40,000 bases of DNA from Sphingomonadales bacterium (GCA_050185585.1 JBFWZH010000001.1:261003-301002), one strand, 5' to 3'. Numbered from the stretch's first letter, positions 21,807 to 40,000 are shown. Program-made: numbers and translations. The notes: generated by a model not told the origin, from the sequence alone.

Positions 21807-22850
21807 TTACCGCTTCAGCAGCAGCTCGGCGATCTGCACCGCGTTGAGGGCGGCGCCCTTCAACAGCTGGTCGCCGGCGGCGAACAGGGCAAGGGTCCGG
21901 CCCGAAGGATCGGCGGTGTCGGCGCGGATGCGGCCCACCAGCACGTCGTCCTGGCCCGAAGCCTCGGACGGCATGGGGAAGTGGTTGGCGGCCCGGTCGT
22001 CCACCAGCTTCAGGCCCTGGCCGTCCCGAAGCAGGTCGCGGGCCTCCTCGGGCGTCACCTCGTCGTCGAACTCGACGCTGATCGACATGGCGTGGGCGCG
22101 CAGCACGGGCACCCGGATGCAGGTGATGCCGATCGGCAGATCATCCGCGCCCAGGATGCGGCGGGTCTCGGCGACCACCTTCAGCTCCTCGCCGTTGTAG
22201 CCGTTCTGCGGGTCCACGTCGGCGTTGTGGCTGAACAGGTTGAAGGCATAGGGATGCGGCAGCACCTTGGGCTCGAAGCTCTCGCCGCGCAAATAGGAGG
22301 CGGTCGACTCGCGCAGCTCCTCCATGGCGGCTGCGCCGGCGCCCGAGGCGGCCTGGTAGGTGGTCAGCCGCAGGCGGCGGATCGGATGCGCCTTGTGCAG
22401 CGGCGCCAGCGCCACGGTGGCGATGGCGGCGACGCAGTTGGGATTGGCGACGATGCCGTTGTGGCGGGCGATCATGTCGCCATTCACCTCGGGCACCACC
22501 AAAGGTACGTCCGGGTCCATGCGGAAGGCCGACGAGTTGTCGACCATGATGGCGCCGGCGCCCACGGCGTGCGGCGCATGGCGGCGCGAGATGGTGGCGC
22601 CGGCCGAGAACAGCGCGACGTCGACACCCTCGAAGCTGCGCTCGGTCAGTTCCTCGATGGTCACGTCCCTGCCCTGGAACGGCAGCACCTTGCCGGCCGA
22701 GCGGGCCGAAGCCAGGAGCTTCAGGCCGCCGACGGGGAAGCCGCGGCTTGCCAGGCAGTGGATGAGCTCGACGCCGACGGCGCCGGTCGCGCCGACGATT
22801 GCCACGACGGGCGCGTTGGAATTGATCTGACGGGGGGAGCTGGTCTGCAT
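21807..22850 (-). CDS. asd: Aspartate-semialdehyde dehydrogenase
   Basis: 347 aa from ATG 22850 (AAGGAAGAG upstream). NAD(P)-binding motif VAIVGATGAVG, active-site region ANPNCV, and C-terminal DQLLKGAALNAVQIAE. The N-terminal extension in the track is His/Arg-rich with no recognisable motifs. Confidence 0.9.
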   Translation of the reverse strand: MQTSSPRQINSNAPVVAIVGATGAVGVELIHCLASRGFPVGGLKLLASARSAGKVLPFQGRDVTIEELTERSFEGVDVALFSAGATISRRHAPHAVGAGAIMVDNSSAFRMDPDVPLVVPEVNGDMIARHNGIVANPNCVAAIATVALAPLHKAHPIRRLRLTTYQAASGAGAAAMEELRESTASYLRGESFEPKVLPHPYAFNLFSHNADVDPQNGYNGEELKVVAETRRILGADDLPIGITCIRVPVLRAHAMSISVEFDDEVTPEEARDLLRDGQGLKLVDDRAANHFPMPSEASGQDDVLVGRIRADTADPSGRTLALFAAGDQLLKGAALNAVQIAELLLKR

Positions 22851-23082
22851 GATCGTCTCTTCCTTTGTTGGGGGAGAGACAGGGTCGGCGTGAGCGTGTC
22901 CCCGTCTCCGGGGCTTCCGCTGAAATGCCGCTCTTAACCCGCGCGCACCAGCGAACGCCCCGCCGAAGCGGTCGTTTTCGTCGTGGTGGTGGTCGTGGTC
23001 ATGGACATGGGGCGCACGTCTAACATGGGCGCGCCGGCATGGCAACCTGCGCCTGCCGCATGGCTCCCGGCCGGTATCGGGC

Positions 23083-23116
23083 AAAAAATAGGGCCGCCCT
23101 CTTTCGAGGGCGGCCC
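23083..23116 (-). terminator. Rho-independent terminator of the hsp20 gene
   Basis: Perfect 11-bp stem GGGCCGCCCTC / GAGGGCGGCCC (23091-23101 and 23106-23116) with a 4-nt loop. It is followed on the minus strand by TATTTTTTG. Confidence 0.85.
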
Positions 23117-23138: not shown

Positions 23139-23615
23139 TCAGGCGGTCGCGTGGTCGATGACCTTCGCGCCCGTGCCGTTGATGGGGATCTGGCGCGGCT
23201 TGCGCTCCTCGGGAACCTCGCGGACGAGGCTGACATGCAGCAGGCCGTTCTCGAGCGAGGCGCCGGTGACCTTAATGGTGTCGGCGAGGTGGAAGCGGCG
23301 CTCGAAGGCGCGCTTGGCGATGCCGCGGTGCAGGTAGACCGGCTGGTTCGCCTCGGTCTCACCCTCGGCCGGCTCGGTCTTCTGGGCGCGGCCCGAGATC
23401 ACGAGCACATCGTCCTTCACCGTCACGTCGAGTTCCTCGTCGGTGAAGCCGGCGACAGCCATGGTCACGCGGTAGTCGTCGTTGCCGGTCTTCTCGATGT
23501 CGTAGGGAGGATAGCCGCCGTCGCCGTTGAAGCGGGTGGCGTTGTCGAGCATGCGGACCAGATTGTCGAAGCCCACGGCCGAACGCATCAGGGGGTTGGT
23601 GTCGAATACACGCAT
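23139..23615 (-). CDS. Small heat-shock protein, Hsp20/alpha-crystallin family (IbpA-like)
   Basis: 158 aa from ATG 23615 (GGAGAG upstream). GGYPPYDIEKTGNDDYRVTMAVAGF...LHRGIAKRAFERRFHLAD...GASLENGLLHVSL is a typical IbpA/HspA-like alpha-crystallin domain. Confidence 0.9.
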   Translation of the reverse strand: MRVFDTNPLMRSAVGFDNLVRMLDNATRFNGDGGYPPYDIEKTGNDDYRVTMAVAGFTDEELDVTVKDDVLVISGRAQKTEPAEGETEANQPVYLHRGIAKRAFERRFHLADTIKVTGASLENGLLHVSLVREVPEERKPRQIPINGTGAKVIDHATA

Positions 23616-23706
23616 CTTACTCTCCGTTGAGCAATAAGGGTTCTGGTGGCCCACCATCCGGTCGGGCCGGTTTTCGCGTCGCCGGGCCCGTCAGCGGCGC
23701 CCGACG
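23616..23706 (-). promoter_or_regulatory. Candidate ROSE-like RNA thermometer in the hsp20 5' leader
   Basis: The leader is about 90 nt, measured from the predicted sigma-32 promoter. Its last hairpin, CUUAUUGCUC-AAC-GGAGAGUAAG, pairs the SD and the bases before the AUG with a segment containing the UUGCU motif known from ROSE elements. The fold was judged by eye only. Confidence 0.4.
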
Positions 23707-23970: not shown

Positions 23971-25323
23971 TCACTCCGCTTCGTCGAGCAGGTTCTTGAA
24001 CACCTTGCCCTCCTTCTCGAACTCGCGCTGGATGCCTTTCACCGCGTCGTCGATGCCGATGGCGAGTTCGCCCCTCGCGATCGCCTTGATCGCCGCGAAC
24101 TGCACCACGTTGACGATGTTGCCCCCCGACAGCTCGAATCGGGCAAGGGCGCAGGCGAGGTCCTCGCGGCCCTTGCGGTCGGGCAGGGCGCGGCGCCAGA
24201 TGTCGCGGCGCTCGTCCTCGGCGGGGAAGGGGAAGCGGATGATGGCGTTGAACCGGCGCAGGAACGCGTCATCCATGTTGGCGCGGAAATTGGTCGCCAG
24301 GATCACCAGCCCGTCGAAATCCTCCACCCGCTGCAGCAGGTAGCTGACCTCCTGGTTGGCATAGCGGTCATGGGCGTCCTTGACGCTGGTGCGCTTGCCG
24401 AACAGGGCGTCGGCCTCGTCGAAGAACAGGATCCAGTCGCGGTTGCGGGCCTGGTCGAACAGGGCCGCCAGGTTCTTCTCGGTCTCGCCGATATATTTCG
24501 AGACCACCGTCGACAGGTCGACCCGATAGACATCGCGCCCGGTTGTTTTGCCGAGGAGCGTGGCGGTCAGGGTCTTGCCGGTGCCGGGCGGACCGTGGAA
24601 CAGGGCGCGGTAGCCTGGACGCAGCCGGCCTTCCATGCCCCACTCCTGCATCAGCGTGCGGCCGTGCGCGACCCAGTTCTCCAGCTCGGCGATGCGCTCG
24701 CGTGTGTCGGCCTCGAGCACCAGGTCCTCCCAGCCCAGCGCGGTCGTGATGCGCCGGGCAGGAAAGGCGGCACTGAACGCCGGGGCCTGGGCGGTGCCAA
24801 GCGTGAAGCGCTCGATCCAGTCGCGGGCCATGACGATACGGCCAGACAGCAGCGGTGCTCCGCCTTGCGGCGCCTCCAGTCGCAGCACGCCATCGGTGGC
24901 GAACCAGTGGTCGGGCGAGAACAGACGCTGCACCTCGAAGCGGCCGTCCAGGTCGTCGCCGGCCAGCAGGAAGGCGGCGGTCTCGCCGGTGGGCAGGAAG
25001 GTGCGGCTGCCGTCGTCGCGGATGCCGCCGATCTCCGGGAAATCGCCCTCGCGCGCCAGCGCCGCGCGGATCTCGGTGTCGAGCAGGGTCGGCCGCACAT
25101 GGGGCGCCAGCGCCAGCAGCAGCATCACATATTCGTCGAACGGCGGCTGGCGCTCGCGGATGAAATCGCCCAGCCGCGAGCCGTCGTCGAAGAACGCCAG
25201 CCTGATCTCGCCGTTTTCGGCAAGCTCTCCACCGGTGATGCGCGCCCGGACCAGCCGCGCGAGCACGCCCAGCGCCGCGTCCAGATTGTCGGCATTGGAG
25301 GGAATGGGCAGTTCGCGGTTCAT
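23971..25323 (-). CDS. AAA+ ATPase, eCIS-associated type (Afp15/Pvc15-like position)
   Basis: Walker A GPPGTGKT, Walker B ILFFDEADALF, sensor ATN, and an N-terminal non-ATPase domain of about 250 aa. Start chosen at ATG 25323 (GAGAGG upstream), because the track start at 25383 lies inside a palindromic repeat. Confidence 0.8.
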   Translation of the reverse strand: MNRELPIPSNADNLDAALGVLARLVRARITGGELAENGEIRLAFFDDGSRLGDFIRERQPPFDEYVMLLLALAPHVRPTLLDTEIRAALAREGDFPEIGGIRDDGSRTFLPTGETAAFLLAGDDLDGRFEVQRLFSPDHWFATDGVLRLEAPQGGAPLLSGRIVMARDWIERFTLGTAQAPAFSAAFPARRITTALGWEDLVLEADTRERIAELENWVAHGRTLMQEWGMEGRLRPGYRALFHGPPGTGKTLTATLLGKTTGRDVYRVDLSTVVSKYIGETEKNLAALFDQARNRDWILFFDEADALFGKRTSVKDAHDRYANQEVSYLLQRVEDFDGLVILATNFRANMDDAFLRRFNAIIRFPFPAEDERRDIWRRALPDRKGREDLACALARFELSGGNIVNVVQFAAIKAIARGELAIGIDDAVKGIQREFEKEGKVFKNLLDEAE

Positions 25324-25359
25324 CGGTTGCCTCTCGATGCAGCGCAAAAGCTCCTCCGT

Positions 25360-25458
25360 GTCCCTGAGCCTGTCGAAGGGCATTGCAGCGCTCGTGCAAT
25401 GCCCCCTTCGACGCCGCCTGCGGCGTCGCTCAGGACGGGCTTCGACAGGCTCGGGGAC
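25360..25458. repeat. Structured palindromic intergenic element (REP-like), copy 2
   Basis: Outer inverted arms GTCCCTGAGCCTGTCGAAG (25360-25378) and CTTCGACAGGCTCGGGGAC (25440-25458), with one mismatch. Inner hairpins are GAAGGGCATTGC/GCAATGCCCCCTTC and GACGCCGC/GCGGCGTC. It shares the 36-bp core with copy 1. Confidence 0.65.
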
Positions 25459-32427: not shown

Positions 32428-35400
32428 CTAGGCCTCGATCACCAGCTTGACTGGCACGGTCTGGCCGGCCCGCAGGCTGATCTCGACCGGCTGCGACTTG
32501 ACCTGGCCCACGGTGGCCACGAACGAATACTTGCTCTGCTTCAGCGTCAGTATGGCGGTGGCGCCGATCCGCTGCTCCGAACTGGAATTGTCGCGCAGGT
32601 CGGTGACGGACAGGACCGAGCGCGGCAGCGGTGTCTCTTGGCCGCGAACCCGCTGGAACACGCTGATCTCGGCGATGCCCGTTTCCCCTCGCGTCGGCGT
32701 CGGTGTTGGGGTTGGTGTAGGTGTCGGCGTGGGCGTGGGTGTGGGCGTCGGCGTCGGCGTCGGAGTCGGCGTTGGCGTTGGAGTAGGCGCGGGAGTGGGC
32801 GTAGGCGTAGGCGTTGGTGTTGGTGTGGGGGCGGGCGTGGGCGTCGTATCGCGGATGATGCCGTCGCCGCGGATCAGCCGCTTCTCGATCACCAAGTCCG
32901 AGCAGTCATCGCAGCACAGATAGGGCAGGCAGAAGTCGCCCAGCACCACGAATTCGTCCAGCAAATCGTCGCTGCGGGGCTTGCTGGACGCGAGGAGCGC
33001 CTGCGCGGCGATCTGGGCGACCACGTCCGGCCCGCCCGTGCCGGTCATGTCCTTGAACGCGGCTTCCAGGGTGCGCTCCAGGGTGCCGAGCGCCGCCGGA
33101 ATGCCAGCCTGCAGGTCGCGGCGGGTGCCGTAGAGCAGCACATAGGTGCCGCCGACCGGCACGCCGCCCTTGTGCTCCAGCCCGGGATGCTTCTTTGCGT
33201 AGCCGGGAAGGATCATCTCCTCGAACATGGCCTTGAGGCGCTTGGCGAGCTCGGTCGACAAGGCCGAGCCGGAGAACTGGGCAGCCGACGCGGCGACCGT
33301 CTCACGCTTGGCGATGATGGCGGCGTTGGCGGCGGCGATCTCGCGCGTGGTCTTTGCCGGGTCGGTCTCCGCCTTCGCCGCGTAGGTCTCGTAGGCGTCG
33401 GCGAAGCCGCGCATGGCGGCGCTGAACCGGTCCTGGTCGAACTCGGCGATCGAGGACACGCTGGTCACCTTCATCACCTCCTCGGCGCGGGCCATCAGGG
33501 CCACGGCGGGATAGATGGCGGCGGCCACCTCGTCGCGCTTGGTCGGGTCGATGATGCCGGCCACGTCCCTGACCCGGTCGATCAGCTCGCCGCCGATGGT
33601 GCGGTCGCGGACCCGGTCGAAGATCAGGCCGACCGCATCCGCCTCGACGGGATTTGTGTCCGCTTCCACCACCAGTTTCCGAACCGTGTCGTCGGGAAGC
33701 CCGCCCTGGCCGCGCAGCATGGTCAGCACCCGGCTGCTGGTGTCCCGGACCTGCAGTTCCTCCTCGTGGTCGAGCACCAGCATGGCGCGCTGGAAGTCGC
33801 CTGTCGCGACCAGCGTCTCGCGCGGCTGCGCGGCTTCCACGATGGCGGAATGGGTCCCGGTGATGGTGAAGCCGGCTTTGCCCGTCTTGGTGGCGTTGAG
33901 ACGGCCCAGGGTCCGCACCAGCCAGACCATGAACGCGAACAGCGTCGACATGATCATCAGGAAGATCACGTCCAGATCGCGCATCTTGCACAGGAGGAGC
34001 TGTTGCACCGCCCTGAGCGCCAGCTGCTGCGACGTCTGGTCGGGCGTGATGCCGTAACCCAGCCAGACGGGTTCGACGGCGAACGATACGCCCAGCTGGC
34101 GCTTCATGGTGATGAGTTCGGCCATGGCGGTGCCCAGCGGCTGGCCCAGAGTTCCCTCGATGCGGATGAAATCGCCGTCCTGCCGGAAGGTCAGGGGATG
34201 GGTCTTTACCCGCGAGAACTGATAGGAATAGACCGTGCCCATCAGATTGGCGCGCGCCTTGCGCCACGACCAGTTCAGGAACAGGTCGCCGGTCCGCTGG
34301 AACCGGTAATAGAAGGGGATGGCCCGGTCGCCCAGCGGCGCCGCCCCGTCGCGCGAGGGCGTCAGCACGATCTCGGCGCCCAGCGCCGTGCGGGTGGAAT
34401 AGGTCTGGGCCAGCAGCACCATGCGCGAGAACAGGGCGTGCAGTTCGGAGCCCCGGTCGCCGCCGCCGCCGACCGCGGGCGAGGGCACGAAGTGGTGCCG
34501 CCGCGGGGCGGGCGCGCCTTCCGGCGCCGGGCCCTCCTTGATGTCCAGCGGGTCGTAGTTGGCGAACTCGGCCAGGGTCCTCGGCGCCTTGCGGAACGAC
34601 ACCGGCGCGGCGACGGCGTCGCCCGCCAGCACATGGCGCGGGAATCGCCCCACATCCGGACAGCACTCCGCCTCGAACAGCGCCGCCGCCTCGATGAACT
34701 CGTTGTGGGCACGGACGATGTCGTGGACGCCGGCATAGAGGTACTGCACCAGCATCGGCCTCGCGCCGAAGTCGGCCAGCATGTTGAGGAAGTGGTGCTT
34801 CGGGACCGGCCCTTCCGGGAACGCGCCTTCGGGGAACATGTCGAGCAGCAGCGGCTCGTAGGCGTCCCACGCCGCGCGCATGGCGGGCTGAAGCTGCGAC
34901 ATGCCCTTGGCGGCGATGCCGAACAGGCCGGCGTAAAGCTCGCCCAGCGTGTCGATGCCGTTGCCCGCCACGTTGATCTTGTCGAGCAGGATCGGCTCCA
35001 GGTCGCGTCGTGGATGGTTCGCCCGGTCGACCGGTATGCCGGCGATCTGCGCTTCCTGCTGCAGGATCTTGTCGGCGGTGGCGCGGGTGACCAGCAGGCG
35101 GCGCAGGGTCAGGTTCATCTCGGACCCCTTGTCCGAGCAGTCGTTGACGTCGCAGTTCTTCAGCGATTCCAGATTGGTCTCGAGGAACAGCATCACCGTC
35201 TTGTCGGCGACGAAATTGTCGTCGAGCCGGATCGGCGCGGTCTCGCCAGGCGCCGGGATGAAGTCGGTGGGCAGCAGTTCCCAGGCCTGGCGCTGGTTGT
35301 TGCCATCGAACAGGAACGGATAGCGGGCGGCGGCCTTCTGCTCGGCCGTCGCCTCGGGGTTGGACGGCACCGGCACCGCGTAGGCGCGCACCCGGTCGAG

Positions 35401-35640
35401 GGCGACCGCGTCCTCGGCGATCAGATAGCCCTCGGATGTGACCGCGCCGCCCTTCGACAGCGTCAGCGTGTCCGTCGCGGGGTTCCAGTCGGGCTTCAGG
35501 CCGCAGACGATGCCGATGCCCACCAGCCGCGACCGGGTCAGCCGCTCCTGCGGTTCCAGGTAGTCAATGATGTCGTTCAGGTTCTCCGAGGTGAGAACCT
35601 GGCCGTTCTCGAAAACCGGGTAGAAGGTCTGGACGTTCAT
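32428..35640 (-). CDS. Uncharacterised 1070-aa eCIS-associated protein, at the tail-fibre/baseplate-periphery position
   Basis: ATG at 35640, 12 nt after the upstream stop. No family name can be assigned. Cys clusters are [11 protein letters not shown] and [13 protein letters not shown]. It has one strongly hydrophobic helix ([18 protein letters not shown]), a 52-residue (TP)n linker and a beta-rich C-terminal domain of about 90 aa. Confidence 0.75.
32692..32847 (-). repeat. Coding hexanucleotide microsatellite (ACN-CCN)n encoding a 52-residue Thr-Pro linker
   Basis: The plus strand reads a (GGY GTN)n run, for example cgtcggcgtcggtgttggggttggtgtaggtgtcggc. The translation is [14 protein letters not shown]...TPTPT, lying inside the 1070-aa ORF. 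Confidence 0.9.
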
Positions 35641-35652
35641 GTCACACCTGCT

Positions 35653-38600
35653 TCAGAAGATGCCGAGGGCGGTGGAGCCCAGCCGGACGATGGTTTCGTT
35701 CTCGCCCTCGTCGCAGTCGTGCAGCGAGGCCGCCGGATAGACGGTGTTGAGCGCTTCGAGGATGTCGATCAGCCGCTTCGCGGTGTTGCGCACGGTGGTC
35801 GCGTTGATCTTCGGCGCGGCCCAGGCGGCGCGCCATGCGCGGTGGGCGGCGTCGAGTTCGGTCATCTGCGACTGGCTGATCCAGCAGATCTTCACCTGCA
35901 CATGGGCCGGCGCTTCCTCTCGCAAGGTGCGCTCGAGCAGCGCGCGGAAGTTCAGGTTGCGGAAGCGCTCGGGCCAGTAGGGCAGGACCACCGAGACGCG
36001 GAAGGAATACGGGTCCTCCTCGCTGCAGAAGCCGCAATCCTCGCCCAGGCAGACCGACATCAGCCTGTCTCCGGTGGCGCGCGGGCGCAGCAGGATGTGC
36101 TCGATCAGGTGCATCCCTTCCGAATTGCACAGGTCCGATGCGAGCAGCGCGTCGTAGCGGTCGATGACGGCGCGCGCCGCCTGAGTCGCCGCCATCTCGG
36201 TGTCGAAGGTCTTGTTGTGGGTCAGCGTGCCGCCGCCGGCGACGATCGCCATGGTGAAGGTGGTCGTTCCCTGGCTCTCGGCGATGCTGAAGGCGCCCTC
36301 GTCGCGCAGGTCCGCATAGGCCTTGGTTGCGGCGTCCGTCGCCGCCTGCTCGGTCGCGAACAGTTCCTGCGAGGCGAACAGCAGCTGGTTCCCCGCATCC
36401 CGGATGGTCACGCGGAACTGGTTGCCCTGCTTCTGGGTGCCGAAGAGGGCGGCGAAATGGCCGGCGCAGGCGAGGTCGCGCCGGGTCAGGTCGTCGATGC
36501 CGAGCAGGCGGCCGGCGCGGCGCTCGAGCCCGGAGACATTCTCCGTGTTCCAGACGTCGGCGGATTTCTCCGGGATCAGGTTGCTGGCCTGGCCGCGCTC
36601 GCGCGACAGCTTCGGGTAGTCGGCGAGGAAGTCGATCTTGTCGCCGATCAGCTGGGCCGACGTCCTGAGCCGGTCGCCGGACAGCCGGAACGACAGCAGC
36701 GCATAGTCGGCGAAGCGTTCGGCGAAGCGGGCGATCAGGTGATCGAGCGCCCGGTTGCGCCGGTCGAGGAACTCCTCCTCGGTCTCGGTCAGGCGGGTGC
36801 GCGTCGTCTCGTCGGCCAGCGCGGCCTTCTCGACGTAGAATTCGTCCGGGAAGGCGTCGAGCGAGCCGGCGGTCTCGGTCACGAACTGGCTGAACCAGGT
36901 TCGCGTCAGCGTCTTGTCCAGCGAATAGAGCCGGCGCAGATTGGCGAGCTGTCCCAGATAGTCGGCGAGGATCTGGTCGAAAAAGGTCAGGTAGCCCTTC
37001 AACTGGCGCGCCTTGGCGATCCGCTCGGGCGATTCCGTGTCCGAAATCCTCGCCGTGCCGATCTTGTAGGTGGCGGGGAAGTCGTGCTGCACCGAGTAGA
37101 ACGCGTCCGGATTGCGCCAGCGGCCGATCGGCACGGGCAGGATCTGGTCGGGCGGCACGTAGAGTTCGCGCCGGTCCAGTCCGCGCAGATAATCCAGTGT
37201 GCGCTCGAATTCCGTGACCTGCGCCCGGTACGGGATGCCGGCCTTGTGGAACAGGATCTTCGAGGCTTCCATGTAGAACACCGGCTGGTGTCCGGCCGGT
37301 ACCGCGAGCGTCCATTTGGCGGCCGGGCCGCCGGGCAGGCCGGCGGCATCATAGGCGCGCAGCTGCAGGTTGCTGATCGCCTCGACGCCGTCGATGTCGA
37401 CGACGATGTTGATGATGTCGGAGGCCTGCACCTTGCGCCGCAGCTCGCTGGCGGCCAGGTCCTCGTCGGTGATGAAGCCCGGCTTGGTGAACACCTGCTG
37501 GCCGCCCACGGTGAAGTCGAAGTCGATGAATGGCCCGTTGAAGATCTCGTCGGGCTGGCGGCCATCGGCCAGCATCTCCTCCAGCGTGTGATAACGCACC
37601 GGCGCCGACAGGTATTTCTCGATGGCGTGGAACACCTGGGCCTGGACCAACTCCATGTCGGCCTCGGGCTTCACTTCGATGTCGGCGCAGATGCCGACGC
37701 GGAACGGGGTCACCGTGGCGATCGACAGATAGTCCTCGCAAAGCCCGCGGTGCGCGTGGAGGACGCGCGAGACGGCGGCGAGCGCCTGGGCGCGGCGCTG
37801 CTGCTTCTGCCAGAACAGCGGCACCAGATCGTCGGCGACCGCGGCGAGCAGCACCGGCCGCACGGTTTGGGCGGTGATGTTGAGCGCCGGCTTGTCCGGG
37901 CGCGGCCGGTCCTCGATCACCCGCAGGATGCAGGGGTCGAAGGTCAGGCTCTGGCCGCCCGTCAGGGTCACGGCCAGCTTGACGCTGAAGCCCGCCTGGA
38001 CGGTCGTGACGGCGACGCTGTCGATGCTGGCGAGGTCTCGCGACAGGTCGATCGTGCCGAAGGCGGGATCGGTGATGTCGAAGCCCAACACGGCACCTTT
38101 CAGCGGGCCTCGGCGCACCTGATAGATCAGGCCTGCCTCGTTCATCGAGCCGAGCAGGTCGTCGATCTCCAGCTCCACCAGGACCTTGTAGAGGCCGGAG
38201 AGTTTCACCGAATGGTTCTGCTGGTTGGCCTTGTTCACCGTTTCGTAGCTCAGCGCGTCGGCCAGGCAGTCGGCGTGGATCGGTACCTCGGATAGCCGGT
38301 AGTTGCCGGGCTCGGCCGGGTTCTGCATGGGATCGAGCCAGGCGTTGCGCAGGCCTTCGATCCGCAGCAGCAGGCGGCGATAATCGGCGACGGTGCGCGG
38401 CGCCGTGGTCAGCACCTCGTGGGTCGGCGCCAGACCCGAGACGCTGGACGGGTCCATCTTGCCGTCCGGACGGGTCATCAAGTCCCTGGTGTCGAAGCCG
38501 GTGCGGTAGGCCAGGTCGGTCAGCGCATAGGCGAGGATCTCCAGCGTGGTGATGCCGGGGTCGTGCAGATTGTGGTCGGTCCACAGCAGTCCCGACAGCT

Positions 38601-38694
38601 TCTGGATGTGGCTCAGGCCTTCGGCGCGCAGGAACGCGTAGTCATAAGCCGGTTCCAGGTCGATCCTGCGGTCGATGCTGCGCGCCTCAAGCAT
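35653..38694 (-). CDS. eCIS baseplate component with a baseplate-J-related N-terminal motif (Afp11/Afp12-like)
   Basis: 1013 aa. ATG 38694 overlaps the upstream stop by 8 nt. The N-terminal WTDHNLHDPGITTLEILAYALTDLAYRTGF resembles the conserved N-terminal region of baseplate-J/gp6-like wedge proteins in tail-like clusters. Confidence 0.55.
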   Translation of the reverse strand: MLEARSIDRRIDLEPAYDYAFLRAEGLSHIQKLSGLLWTDHNLHDPGITTLEILAYALTDLAYRTGFDTRDLMTRPDGKMDPSSVSGLAPTHEVLTTAPRTVADYRRLLLRIEGLRNAWLDPMQNPAEPGNYRLSEVPIHADCLADALSYETVNKANQQNHSVKLSGLYKVLVELEIDDLLGSMNEAGLIYQVRRGPLKGAVLGFDITDPAFGTIDLSRDLASIDSVAVTTVQAGFSVKLAVTLTGGQSLTFDPCILRVIEDRPRPDKPALNITAQTVRPVLLAAVADDLVPLFWQKQQRRAQALAAVSRVLHAHRGLCEDYLSIATVTPFRVGICADIEVKPEADMELVQAQVFHAIEKYLSAPVRYHTLEEMLADGRQPDEIFNGPFIDFDFTVGGQQVFTKPGFITDEDLAASELRRKVQASDIINIVVDIDGVEAISNLQLRAYDAAGLPGGPAAKWTLAVPAGHQPVFYMEASKILFHKAGIPYRAQVTEFERTLDYLRGLDRRELYVPPDQILPVPIGRWRNPDAFYSVQHDFPATYKIGTARISDTESPERIAKARQLKGYLTFFDQILADYLGQLANLRRLYSLDKTLTRTWFSQFVTETAGSLDAFPDEFYVEKAALADETTRTRLTETEEEFLDRRNRALDHLIARFAERFADYALLSFRLSGDRLRTSAQLIGDKIDFLADYPKLSRERGQASNLIPEKSADVWNTENVSGLERRAGRLLGIDDLTRRDLACAGHFAALFGTQKQGNQFRVTIRDAGNQLLFASQELFATEQAATDAATKAYADLRDEGAFSIAESQGTTTFTMAIVAGGGTLTHNKTFDTEMAATQAARAVIDRYDALLASDLCNSEGMHLIEHILLRPRATGDRLMSVCLGEDCGFCSEEDPYSFRVSVVLPYWPERFRNLNFRALLERTLREEAPAHVQVKICWISQSQMTELDAAHRAWRAAWAAPKINATTVRNTAKRLIDILEALNTVYPAASLHDCDEGENETIVRLGSTALGIF

Positions 38695-40000
38695 TGCCTG
38701 GCACCTCCGCTATGCTGTGCCTTGCGGCCGAAACCAGGATCGAACGCGCCGTTGTCGCCTCGACCGTCTCCACATCCACCGGCGTCCAGCCGCCCGCCGG
38801 CGCGTCGATGTCGACCTTGTGAAACAGGCGGAAGTCGATGACGTAGTCCACCTCGGACCGCTCCTCGACGAAATCGATGATCGAGGATTTCCACAGCTTG
38901 CCGCCGAAGGCGATCTCGCCGCCGCCCGGCCGCGCCCAGGGCGTCAGGAAGTCGATCACCGCCTTGTTCAGCTCGTCCTTGTAGAAAGCGATGTCGCCGA
39001 TCTCGGGCCGGAAGCGGACCTTGAAGTCCACCTGGACCTCCTCGAATTTGGGATTCTGAACCTCGAGCCGCACGAAGGGCGAGACGCGCTTGCGCAGGAA
39101 GGCGTCGACCGCCGTCAGCGTGGCCTGGTCGGTGTAGGGCCGCAGCGGGTCTCGCGCGTTCTGGCCATGAGTCCAGGGAACGGTGACGACCGTGACCGCG
39201 CCGGGCATCATCTCGTTGTCGGCGATGATGACGTTGGCGGCGCTCCGCTTCAGTTCCGTCGTGCCCAGACACCTGACCCGGTAGAGGCGCGGGAACGCTT
39301 CCAGCACCAGCGCCTCGTAGTCGAACATGGTGACGGCTCGGTCCTTGTGCCTCAGCCGCTCGCTGACCCGGGTGGCGAAGGCATCGGGCCGCTCGACCGG
39401 GCGGCCGTCGAACGAGCTGTAGGGCTGGACGATCTTCTTGATGGCGAGATCGGGCGCCGCGAGCTTCGAGATGCTGCCCGCCGGCAGCGGCGTCTCGAGG
39501 AAGGCCGGGTCGTTGCCCGCGTCGGCGAATACCACCCGCGCGGCCTGCGCGTCCACTGACAGCAGGCGGTTGAGCGCGTCGGCGTCATGGGTCGCGGCAA
39601 TCCGGATCCAGCGCAGGCCGGCGGGCAGCAGATTGTGCGCAGTGTCGGCTTCCTCCGGCAGGTTGAGGCCGAGTACGCCGGAGCCGGTGAAGTCGTTGGT
39701 CTTGTCGTCCACATCCTGCGGGTCGAACGCGGTCCAGGCATCGCCGTCGAGGAACGAGAACTGCAGGTCGGGCGCCTTCTTCAGCGGATCGCCCGAGCCG
39801 TCGGCCACCTGGACCAGCAGGGTGAGACGGGCCGGGCTGTCGAAATCGGCGACGCCCACCAGCAGCGCGCCCTCGAAGGGGAATTCGGGGAACAGCCGGC
39901 CATCTGCACTACCGGCCGAGACGCCGAACGGATGCAGCAGCACGAAGCCCTCGACCGGGTCTCGGGTTGTCTCATAGGACGCCTCGATGCGCGTCACCAC
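38687..40000 (-). CDS. Baseplate-J-like protein, C-terminal part (5' end beyond the window)
   Basis: The ORF is open to the window edge. The C-terminal pattern VRLEVQNPKFEEVQVDFKVRF...LNKAVIDFLTPWA...GGEIAFGGKLWKSSIIDFVEERSEVDYVIDFRLF is typical of the Baseplate_J (gp47 / P2 gpJ / Afp11) C-terminal region. Confidence 0.65.
   Translation of the reverse strand: MVTRIEASYETTRDPVEGFVLLHPFGVSAGSADGRLFPEFPFEGALLVGVADFDSPARLTLLVQVADGSGDPLKKAPDLQFSFLDGDAWTAFDPQDVDDKTNDFTGSGVLGLNLPEEADTAHNLLPAGLRWIRIAATHDADALNRLLSVDAQAARVVFADAGNDPAFLETPLPAGSISKLAAPDLAIKKIVQPYSSFDGRPVERPDAFATRVSERLRHKDRAVTMFDYEALVLEAFPRLYRVRCLGTTELKRSAANVIIADNEMMPGAVTVVTVPWTHGQNARDPLRPYTDQATLTAVDAFLRKRVSPFVRLEVQNPKFEEVQVDFKVRFRPEIGDIAFYKDELNKAVIDFLTPWARPGGGEIAFGGKLWKSSIIDFVEERSEVDYVIDFRLFHKVDIDAPAGGWTPVDVETVEATTARSILVSAARHSIAEVPGNA

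Follow-up and report, generated by a model that had tools for sequence, protein, structure and literature searches.

Here, we propose that a large gene from a Sphingomonadales bacterium encodes the tail fibre of a chromosomal extracellular contractile injection system (eCIS) of the lineage that includes AlgoCIS and the thylakoid-anchored system (tCIS) of Anabaena. The gene lies on the minus strand of a 40,000-nucleotide stretch of DNA (GCA_050185585.1 JBFWZH010000001.1:261003-301002), the whole of which is hereafter called the window, and it is packed between the genes for the baseplate wedge protein Cis12 and for the tape measure. Its product is a member of the published Cis19/Alg19 tail fibre family, which has been solved structurally (7b5h, 9wt0). 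We consider it highly probable that the protein serves this system as its Cis19/Alg19-type (eBAP4) fibre, with a C-terminal domain that binds the target and is the main determinant of specificity.

32428..35640, minus strand: target fibre gene, Cis19/Alg19 family (eBAP4 class), 1070 aa (open reading frame, GC content at third codon positions, PDB homologues, family profile, Foldseek)

A member of the Cis19/Alg19 fibre family

The assignment draws on both sequence and predicted structure. A phmmer search of the PDB returned 9wt0_a (E 5.2e-42) and 7b5h_AA (E 8.6e-42). The first is a 1443-aa AlgoCIS “PKD domain-containing protein” deposited with Alg12, which we equated with Alg19 by its length and the co-deposited Alg12 chain; the second is the Anabaena PCC 7120 protein All3314 (Cis19), of which the tCIS baseplate contains 18 chains. 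A family profile built from 103 sequences matched Alg19 at E 4.6e-145 and All3314 at E 1.1e-120, with profile positions 2-1019 of 1160 aligned. The AlphaFold2 (AF2) monomer model of the target, made from the family alignment, had a mean predicted local distance difference test score (pLDDT) of 88.5 and a predicted TM-score (pTM) of 0.77, with low confidence only at residues 593-611 and in a Thr-Pro linker. When this model was compared with the PDB by Foldseek, a check that had been suggested for the full protein when it was first described from its sequence (the original prediction), the only significant fold matches were the three Cis19 chains 7b5h_AA, AB and AC (E 1e-26 to 3e-24, ~970 columns, TMt 0.61-0.63), and nothing else fell below E 1e-3. 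Placement in the eBAP4 class is made through homology to All3314.

The original prediction had found no named family for the protein. This holds for Pfam, NCBIfam and PHROGs, in which the full protein has no informative match, but not in general, since the Cis19/Alg19 family has cryo-EM structures (7b5h, 9wt0). Matches to TonB, S-layer and phrog_15511 models fall on the low-complexity Thr-Pro linker and were rejected as compositional, as were PDB matches at residues ~925-1000 (AaBgIC, internalin K, RAD23 and others), a region of low complexity rich in Pro and Thr.

Could the protein instead be a fibre of the Afp13/Pvc13 type, or a toxin or cargo misplaced at the fibre position? Its position late in an eCIS operon is the only point that speaks for this. 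Afp12/Afp13-type families had been named as a place to search: no Afp13/Pvc13 chain was found among PDB matches at E ≤ 10, with Afp and PVC baseplate entries present in the library (6rao and 6j0n were matched by Cis12), and the search led to Cis19/Alg19 homology instead, over the full length. Nor was there any toxin similarity in the PDB at E ≤ 10, in Pfam or in NCBIfam, and the cargo-type DUF4157 gene of the locus is a separate downstream open reading frame (ORF). We regard this alternative as effectively refuted. Afp13/Pvc13 fibres (eBAP1, adenovirus-shaft-like, with a short helical N-terminal anchor) have in common with our protein the general role of an eCIS fibre, without detectable sequence similarity, and differ in folding back along the sheath and in contacting one wedge per fibre.

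Comparison with characterised relatives

All3314 was named Cis19 in the Anabaena tCIS, where six trimers (the 18 chains per baseplate) form a “crown” round the spike cage and where target binding was proposed for its distal parts, which are flexible and unmodelled (Weiss et al. 2022, PMC8894136). It provides the only significant structural match to our protein, and its gene also follows directly after that for Cis12. It differs in being without the CCxxC cluster, having FCLPYRF instead, and in its unmodelled distal region of ~570 aa.

Alg19 (ALPR1_12705) is the tail fibre of the AlgoCIS of Algoriphagus machipongonensis (PDB 9wt0; Xu et al. 2022, PMC8894135; bioRxiv 10.1101/2025.10.08.681156; 10.64898/2026.05.27.728243). 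According to the AlgoCIS literature, it bridges two wedges by means of a TssK-like shoulder, which attaches to the Alg12 C-terminal loop; the shoulder folds like TssK and like the shoulders of lactococcal phage receptor-binding proteins (p2, 1358), and the Alg12 contact resembles that of TssK with TssG. The same literature reports that particles of a ΔAlg19 mutant are seldom seen on cells and are more prone to pH-triggered firing (at low pH), and that fibre binding alone is no trigger for firing, a secondary receptor that possibly engages the cage having been proposed. Alg19 consists of a conserved module (residues 1-913) and a flexible domain (914-1444), and replacing its tip with a T7 fibre, a nanobody or an Ad5 knob retargeted AlgoCIS to E. 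coli or HeLa cells (bioRxiv 10.64898/2026.05.27.728243).

The likeness between Alg19 and our protein extends across the whole shoulder, neck and middle module and includes the motifs C-x4-C, HPGLEHxxGV and LPYxCCxDC, a module that ends near residue 913 and gives way to a flexible distal part, and a gene that follows Cis12 and precedes those for the tape measure and a DUF4157 protein. The window Cis12 is, moreover, of the short Alg12-like type. The differences are also clear: identity is only ~25%; the distal part of Alg19 has 531 residues in four Ig-like folds and a helical tip, whereas that of our protein is one 87-aa domain on a Thr-Pro linker; the middle-domain helix is amphipathic in Alg19 and fully hydrophobic in our protein; and the host of Alg19 belongs to the Bacteroidota, ours being a high-GC proteobacterium. 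A TssK-like shoulder in our protein would follow from the literature on Alg19, the Foldseek matches of our model to TssK being non-significant (6n38 chains E, F and A, E 0.15-0.26, probability 0.09-0.13).

The first 200 aa encoded by the tCIS crown gene serve to define the eBAP4 class, which comprises 402 genes from Pseudomonadota, Bacteroidota and Cyanobacteriota (Nachmias et al. 2026, PMC12923769). Its loci carry Afp11/12 homologues, and its proteins have a bulky alpha+beta or helical shaft, then flexible chains of PKD, Ig, VWA or carboxypeptidase-regulatory domains (PMC12923769). Our protein shows every trait listed for the class.

Conserved gene order and a fast-diverging fibre

Gene calls in a Pseudomonas sp., in Roseibium album and in a metagenome-assembled genome (MAG) (loci L001-L003) gave the order tube, VgrG, PAAR, gp25, Cis11, Cis12, fibre, CIS_TMP (the tape measure), eCIS_core, AAA. 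A scan of one genome per GTDB species, with a 38-sequence alignment as query, found 43 loci, mostly in Alpha- and Gammaproteobacteria with scattered cases in Rhodothermales, Acidobacteriota, Chloroflexia, Phycisphaerales, Nitrospinaceae and Desulfobacteria. Pseudomonas schmalbachii, P. jinjuensis and Roseibium album are among the carriers that can be cultured. In every locus with enough flank, tblastn with the window proteins recovered Cis11, Cis12, fibre, tape measure, eCIS_core and AAA in order. The original prediction had asked whether the gene co-occurs with eCIS loci across genomes and had named a lack of synteny with contractile-tail genes as evidence against itself; since the order is kept in all loci with enough flank, synteny is what was observed. 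The order also fits the AlgoCIS locus tags ALPR1_12705 (Alg19) and ALPR1_12695 and ALPR1_12690 (Cgo1/2). The exact target protein occurs, with the same neighbours, in Logan assembly SRR27751816 as well.

The closest species-level relatives are alphaproteobacterial MAGs, among them those carrying locus L015 (83% identity over residues 1-392) and locus L009, in which the fibre is 60% identical to that of the window, Cis11 92% and Cis12 87%. Mean identity to the 15 closest homologues is 75% in the shoulder and 56% overall, and falls to 39.5% in the C-terminal domain and 30.5% in the linker. Such a gradient, along with a fast-diverging fibre, is at the sequence level the pattern expected of a baseplate-anchored, target-facing protein.

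Across L009, L012 and L015, Cis11, Cis12, eCIS_core and AAA are 78-92% identical to their window counterparts, and the fibre and tape measure only 55-60%; over the 169 aa available in L009, the tape measure is 70% identical. These values suggest that the fibre and the tape measure have evolved faster or have recombined.

The conserved module and its Cys/His sets

The conserved module of shoulder, neck and middle domain runs from residue 1 to about 915 and closes at the CCxxC motif, as in Alg19. Its features are as follows.

35041..35640, minus strand: residues 1-200, N-terminal baseplate-anchoring shoulder (eBAP4 domain), the best-conserved part
35128..35160, minus strand: residues 161-171, C162-x4-C167 motif, with C162, C167 and G171 invariant in 103 sequences
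33907..33984, minus strand: residues 553-578, middle-domain helix (AF2), with a core at 557-574 that is fully hydrophobic in the proteobacterial clade
33166..33192, minus strand: residues 817-825, HPGLEHKGG, near the end of the middle domain, with H822 and G825 invariant and P818 and G819 nearly so
32899..32937, minus strand: residues 902-914, CCxxC motif closing the conserved module, aligned with Alg19 residues 879-904

All motifs quoted in the original prediction are present in the 1070-aa translation. Of its two Cys motifs, that at 902-914 does stand just before the linker; the description “near the N-terminus” is loose for the one at 161-171, which lies inside the shoulder region. The HPGLEHKGG motif aligns with both Alg19 and All3314. 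Since the cysteines are conserved across the 103 homologues, a chance origin of the quoted features is excluded, and by their distribution the Cys motifs and the hydrophobic helix are elements of the conserved module of the family and not peculiarities of our protein.

Among the 103 homologues, C162, C167, H335 and H822 are invariant, and C45, C325, C550, C908, C909 and C912 are kept in at least 90%. Losses are correlated: the four sequences without C550 are all without C909 and C912 too (4/4), and the three without C325 also have no C45 (3/3). This co-variation suggests three structural sites, namely C162/C167/H335/H822, C550 with the CCxxC motif, and C45/C325. Most likely these serve as structural cross-links, whether metal sites or disulfides, between segments of the module that are far apart in the sequence. 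As regards published accounts, the text of the tCIS paper (PMC8894136) contains none of the words zinc, metal, iron, disulfide or cysteine, and the AlgoCIS firing paper discusses no disulfide other than one in Alg11. In the main text of the eBAP4 catalogue (PMC12923769) the word “transmembrane” is absent, “cysteine” and “hydrophobic” not having been searched there. A clade-specific helix of transmembrane grade and the Cys/His sets were thus not found in text searches of the tCIS, AlgoCIS-firing and catalogue papers, each term having been searched in some of them only.

The loop that follows the hydrophobic helix (residues 581-625) is the least conserved part of the module, with 19% identity among close homologues and pLDDT < 50 at 593-611. 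It is probably surface-exposed and a second hypervariable region besides the distal domain.

A hydrophobic helix in the middle domain

The single very hydrophobic mid-protein helix that had been pointed out earlier was recovered at residues 557-574, where the Kyte-Doolittle mean over 19 residues (KD19) reaches 2.26, the next best segment of the protein having 1.22; in relatives KD19 at the helix rises to 3.18. In our view this helix most likely lies buried in the core of the alpha-helical middle domain. Its aligned counterpart in Alg19, at ~505-545, is amphipathic. A heptad-like hydrophobic stripe (552/555/559/562/566/570/574/577) is common to both clades, and in the proteobacterial clade alone the remaining helix faces are hydrophobic as well. 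How amphipathic the surrounding helices are did not separate the hypotheses.

Might the helix instead be membrane-active in the proteobacterial clade? In one form of this idea it would anchor the particle to the membrane of the producer, as does the transmembrane helix of Cis13 in the Anabaena tCIS, which is held to thylakoids by Cis13 and by an extension of Cis12 (aa 610-1100) (PMC8894136); in another the free particle would keep it covered, and it would insert into the target membrane once the fibres tilt on firing. The hydrophobicity itself, in our protein and still more in its relatives, invites such a view. KD19 exceeds 1.6 in 60/103 family members, all of the proteobacterial type and none of the PKD/Alg19 type, and the 18-residue core carries no charge in 51 of 75 clade members. 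The C-terminal flank of the helix is basic and looks like a stop-transfer flank, and there is the precedent of a related contractile injection system that is membrane-anchored by a fibre-like protein (PMC8894136). Furthermore, no Cis13 homologue lies between Cis11 and Cis12, either in the window or in L001-L003, which is a difference from the tCIS and its Cis13 anchoring.

Yet several observations stand against it. The core includes one or two charged residues in the other 24 of the 75 clade members (a third of the clade tolerating D or E there), and the helix occupies the position of the amphipathic, heptad-patterned helix of Alg19. It sits in a compact model (pTM 0.77) in which its 10-residue blocks average pLDDT 89-97. 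A constitutive transmembrane span is argued against by there being a single hydrophobic segment and by the co-variation of C550 with C909/C912: these cysteines are ~350 residues further on, so both ends of the excursion should be on one side, and one stable span would put them on opposite sides of the membrane. The positive charges at the C-terminal end would, in addition, orient the 555-aa baseplate-binding N-domain outside the cytoplasm. Lastly, Cis12 in the window is without most of the tCIS membrane-contact extension, and our protein has no homology to Cis13. Overall, we judge a membrane-active helix unlikely.

A more specific version of the same idea is that, in the proteobacterial branch tipped with CarboxypepD_reg domains, a coiled-coil-like helix became a hydrophobic segment of transmembrane grade that may be a latent element for membrane insertion or anchoring, with the invariant C162/C167/H335/H822 set and the co-varying C550/CCxxC set as redox- or metal-dependent latches. 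Before firing, the collar would cover the helix; an outward tilt of the fibres by ~60 degrees would expose it, and it would then pin the baseplate to the target membrane, or else tether particles to the membrane of the producer. We hold this, too, to be improbable, and retain the buried core helix as the preferred reading.

The linker and the C-terminal domain

Beyond the conserved module, the distal part of the protein has two elements.

32698..32847, minus strand: residues 932-981, (T/A)P flexible linker of 50 residues (sequence; pLDDT < 50 over 954-983)
32431..32691, minus strand: residues 984-1070, 87 aa, CarboxypepD_reg/transthyretin-like beta-sandwich, putative receptor-binding domain (AF2, Foldseek, family hidden Markov model (HMM))

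A Thr-Pro spacer had been described as 52 residues long; the spacer is there, and measures 50. Its DNA is an imperfect 6-nt repeat (79% matches) with mixed synonymous codons, features that rule out recent slippage or a phase-variable repeat and argue that the linker is maintained at the protein level.

The C-terminal domain, which ends in ...VPVKLVIEA, had been likened to an Ig- or carboxypeptidase-regulatory-like beta sandwich, and this description agrees with our analysis of the isolated domain. Modelled alone by AF2, it is all-beta with nine strands (pLDDT 94.5). Foldseek matched it to 5aq0 (the transthyretin-like domain of carboxypeptidase D), 2nsm, 3e8v and 6hif_Y (TM 0.49-0.67), with Cna-B pilin domains also among the best folds, and, in a viral library, to fibres of the phage tail and tail collar (TM 0.7-0.77). 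Against an HMM derived from distant family members only, the domain scored 48.6 bits (E 8e-15), 200 shuffled sequences scoring at most 12.7 bits, and PF13620 was matched by 28 of the 44 aligned C-terminal domains of the family (best E 9.3e-13). Across the family the distal part differs: members of the proteobacterial clade have one or, in some cases, several CarboxypepD_reg-type domains, and those of Bacteroidota have PKD/Ig arrays.

Proposed role in the particle

In light of the protein being a Cis19/Alg19-type fibre, what might it do in the particle? By analogy with its homologues, it would form homotrimers, six per particle, whose TssK-like shoulders would dock on the C-terminal loop of Cis12 and so bridge two neighbouring baseplate wedges. 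The module from residue 1 to ~915, its distant segments clamped together by the Cys/His sets, would make a bulky collar round the baseplate and spike cage; this collar would stabilise the pre-firing state and tilt outward on firing. From the CCxxC end, the Thr-Pro linker would hold out one 87-aa sandwich, giving three per fibre and 18 per particle. Target binding would then fall to the C-terminal domain, which would accordingly be what chiefly determines specificity. The original prediction had likewise seen a target-recognition element on a flexible stalk that determines specificity, a view supported, by analogy, by homology to Alg19 and by the Alg19 knockout and tip swaps.

An alternative is that the fibre is mainly a structural crown or firing checkpoint, its essential job being to connect baseplate wedges and keep the iris shut, with the C-terminal domain as a decoration (for stability or glycan stickiness) and specificity residing elsewhere, for example in the Cis11 cage. 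The tCIS homologue was indeed described as a crown, with a binding role only proposed (PMC8894136), and the distal part of our protein is just one 87-aa domain. The readier firing of the ΔAlg19 mutant at low pH, the finding that fibre binding alone is no trigger, and the secondary receptor proposed for AlgoCIS, which may engage the cage, all fit such a role. On the other hand, the Alg19 knockout nearly abolishes cell binding, and tip swaps suffice to retarget AlgoCIS. In our family the distal domain and linker are the fastest-evolving of the “ordered parts”, and across the clade the domain always sits at the end of a flexible tether. The two roles are also compatible, as Alg19 has both. We find a purely structural fibre quite unlikely, and continue to favour a fibre whose C-terminal domain binds the target.

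Several points weigh against this proposal. The experimental support comes from Alg19, which is outside the proteobacterial clade of our protein, and the structure predictions are of monomers, the trimer and the Cis12 contact resting on homologues. The C-terminal domain of the target itself does not match PF13620 even at E ≤ 10 and falls under every Pfam threshold, and a generic beta-sandwich fold such as this one is, taken alone, silent on the ligand. With 87 aa, it is much smaller than the distal region of Alg19 (four Ig folds and a helical tip), so that binding could need avidity or a co-receptor. Finally, a KD19 of 2.26 (up to 3.18) is unusually hydrophobic for a soluble protein, and simple burial does not explain it.

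What the assignment adds

A large “hypothetical protein” without a Pfam family can now be named as a Cis19/Alg19-type fibre in 43 or more species-level genomes, most of them from Alpha- and Gammaproteobacteria. The family, its structures and its catalogue class are already known, and our protein is a compact variant with a single-domain tip, typical of the proteobacterial clade; the current understanding of eCIS is unchanged. The distal architecture of this clade is about the most compact seen in the family. Given that particles have been retargeted before by the exchange of Alg19 tips, a natural tip of one domain, borne on a simple linker, makes an appealing minimal scaffold to engineer, and the compact tip is also a tractable case for receptor identification.

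The gene and its neighbours

The 1070-aa ORF occupies 32428..35640 on the minus strand, and its GC content at third codon positions (GC3) of 0.90 identifies this frame as the real one. The plus-strand translation of 32428-35640 is riddled with stops. The window has 63-70% GC per 2-kb segment, and long spurious ORFs are therefore plentiful: one of 2148 aa on the plus strand (31849..38295), antisense to Cis12 and the fibre gene, fails the codon-position filter (GC3 > 0.80 and GC2, the GC content at second positions, < 0.60) and was rejected as an artefact of high-GC DNA (67-69% GC).

The other genes of the locus that lie in the window are listed below.

38687..40000, minus strand: Cis11 (Baseplate_J-like), C-terminal 437 aa, cut by the window end (PF04865 E 4.5e-05)
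35653..38694, minus strand: Cis12 baseplate wedge protein, 1013 aa, upstream neighbour and expected docking partner (PDB All3315 E 5.3e-134, Alg12 E 6e-119)
31044..32417, minus strand: CIS tape-measure protein (CIS_TMP), 457 aa, downstream neighbour (PF19268 E 5.4e-91)
25495..31041, minus strand: eCIS_core/DUF4157 protein, 1848 aa from the start at 31041 (PF13699 E 1.3e-29; start as in the L047 gene call)
23971..25383, minus strand: AAA+ ATPase (Cis15-like), last gene of the locus (PF00004 E 4.9e-28)

The tight packing between a baseplate gene and the tape-measure gene that had been noticed at the outset is borne out: the gap is 12 nt from the Cis12 stop to the fibre start and 10 nt from the fibre stop to the tape-measure start, and the identities of both neighbours agree with the profile and PDB matches above. 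Full-length Cis11 has 1310 aa in locus L047. Cis12 aligns to All3315 residues 10-129, 182-658 and 1138-1331, reaching the end of All3315 with its own C-terminus and skipping ~659-1137. By this alignment, it is without most of the tCIS-specific extension of ~490 aa (aa 610-1100) that touches the thylakoid membrane, and in this respect the window system is nearer to the free AlgoCIS particle than to the tCIS.

The DUF4157 protein corresponds by position and domain to the AlgoCIS cargo proteins Cgo1 and Cgo2, and by analogy with these DUF4157 proteins it is a probable tube-lumen cargo. Unlike a typical variable toxin, it keeps its size and position in all related loci, and it is often better conserved than the fibre (79% vs 60% in L012). 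It also has two strongly hydrophobic stretches, at residues 1382-1400 (KD19 1.99) and 1439-1457 (KD19 2.35) in the numbering of a 1917-aa ORF, and a weak match to a “Senescence” domain.

In L001-L003 the locus ends after the AAA gene. In the window, an HSP20 small heat-shock gene (23139-23657, minus strand) and an aspartate-semialdehyde-dehydrogenase-like gene (21807-23084, minus strand) stand immediately behind the AAA ATPase. They probably have no connection with the locus, because the genes after AAA differ among L001-L003 and the operon ends at AAA there. Below ~23 kb are housekeeping genes (heparinase II/III-like, PurH, NAD-glutamate dehydrogenase, a Na+/H+ exchanger and others), which mark this as the distal end of a chromosomal contractile-injection-system operon.

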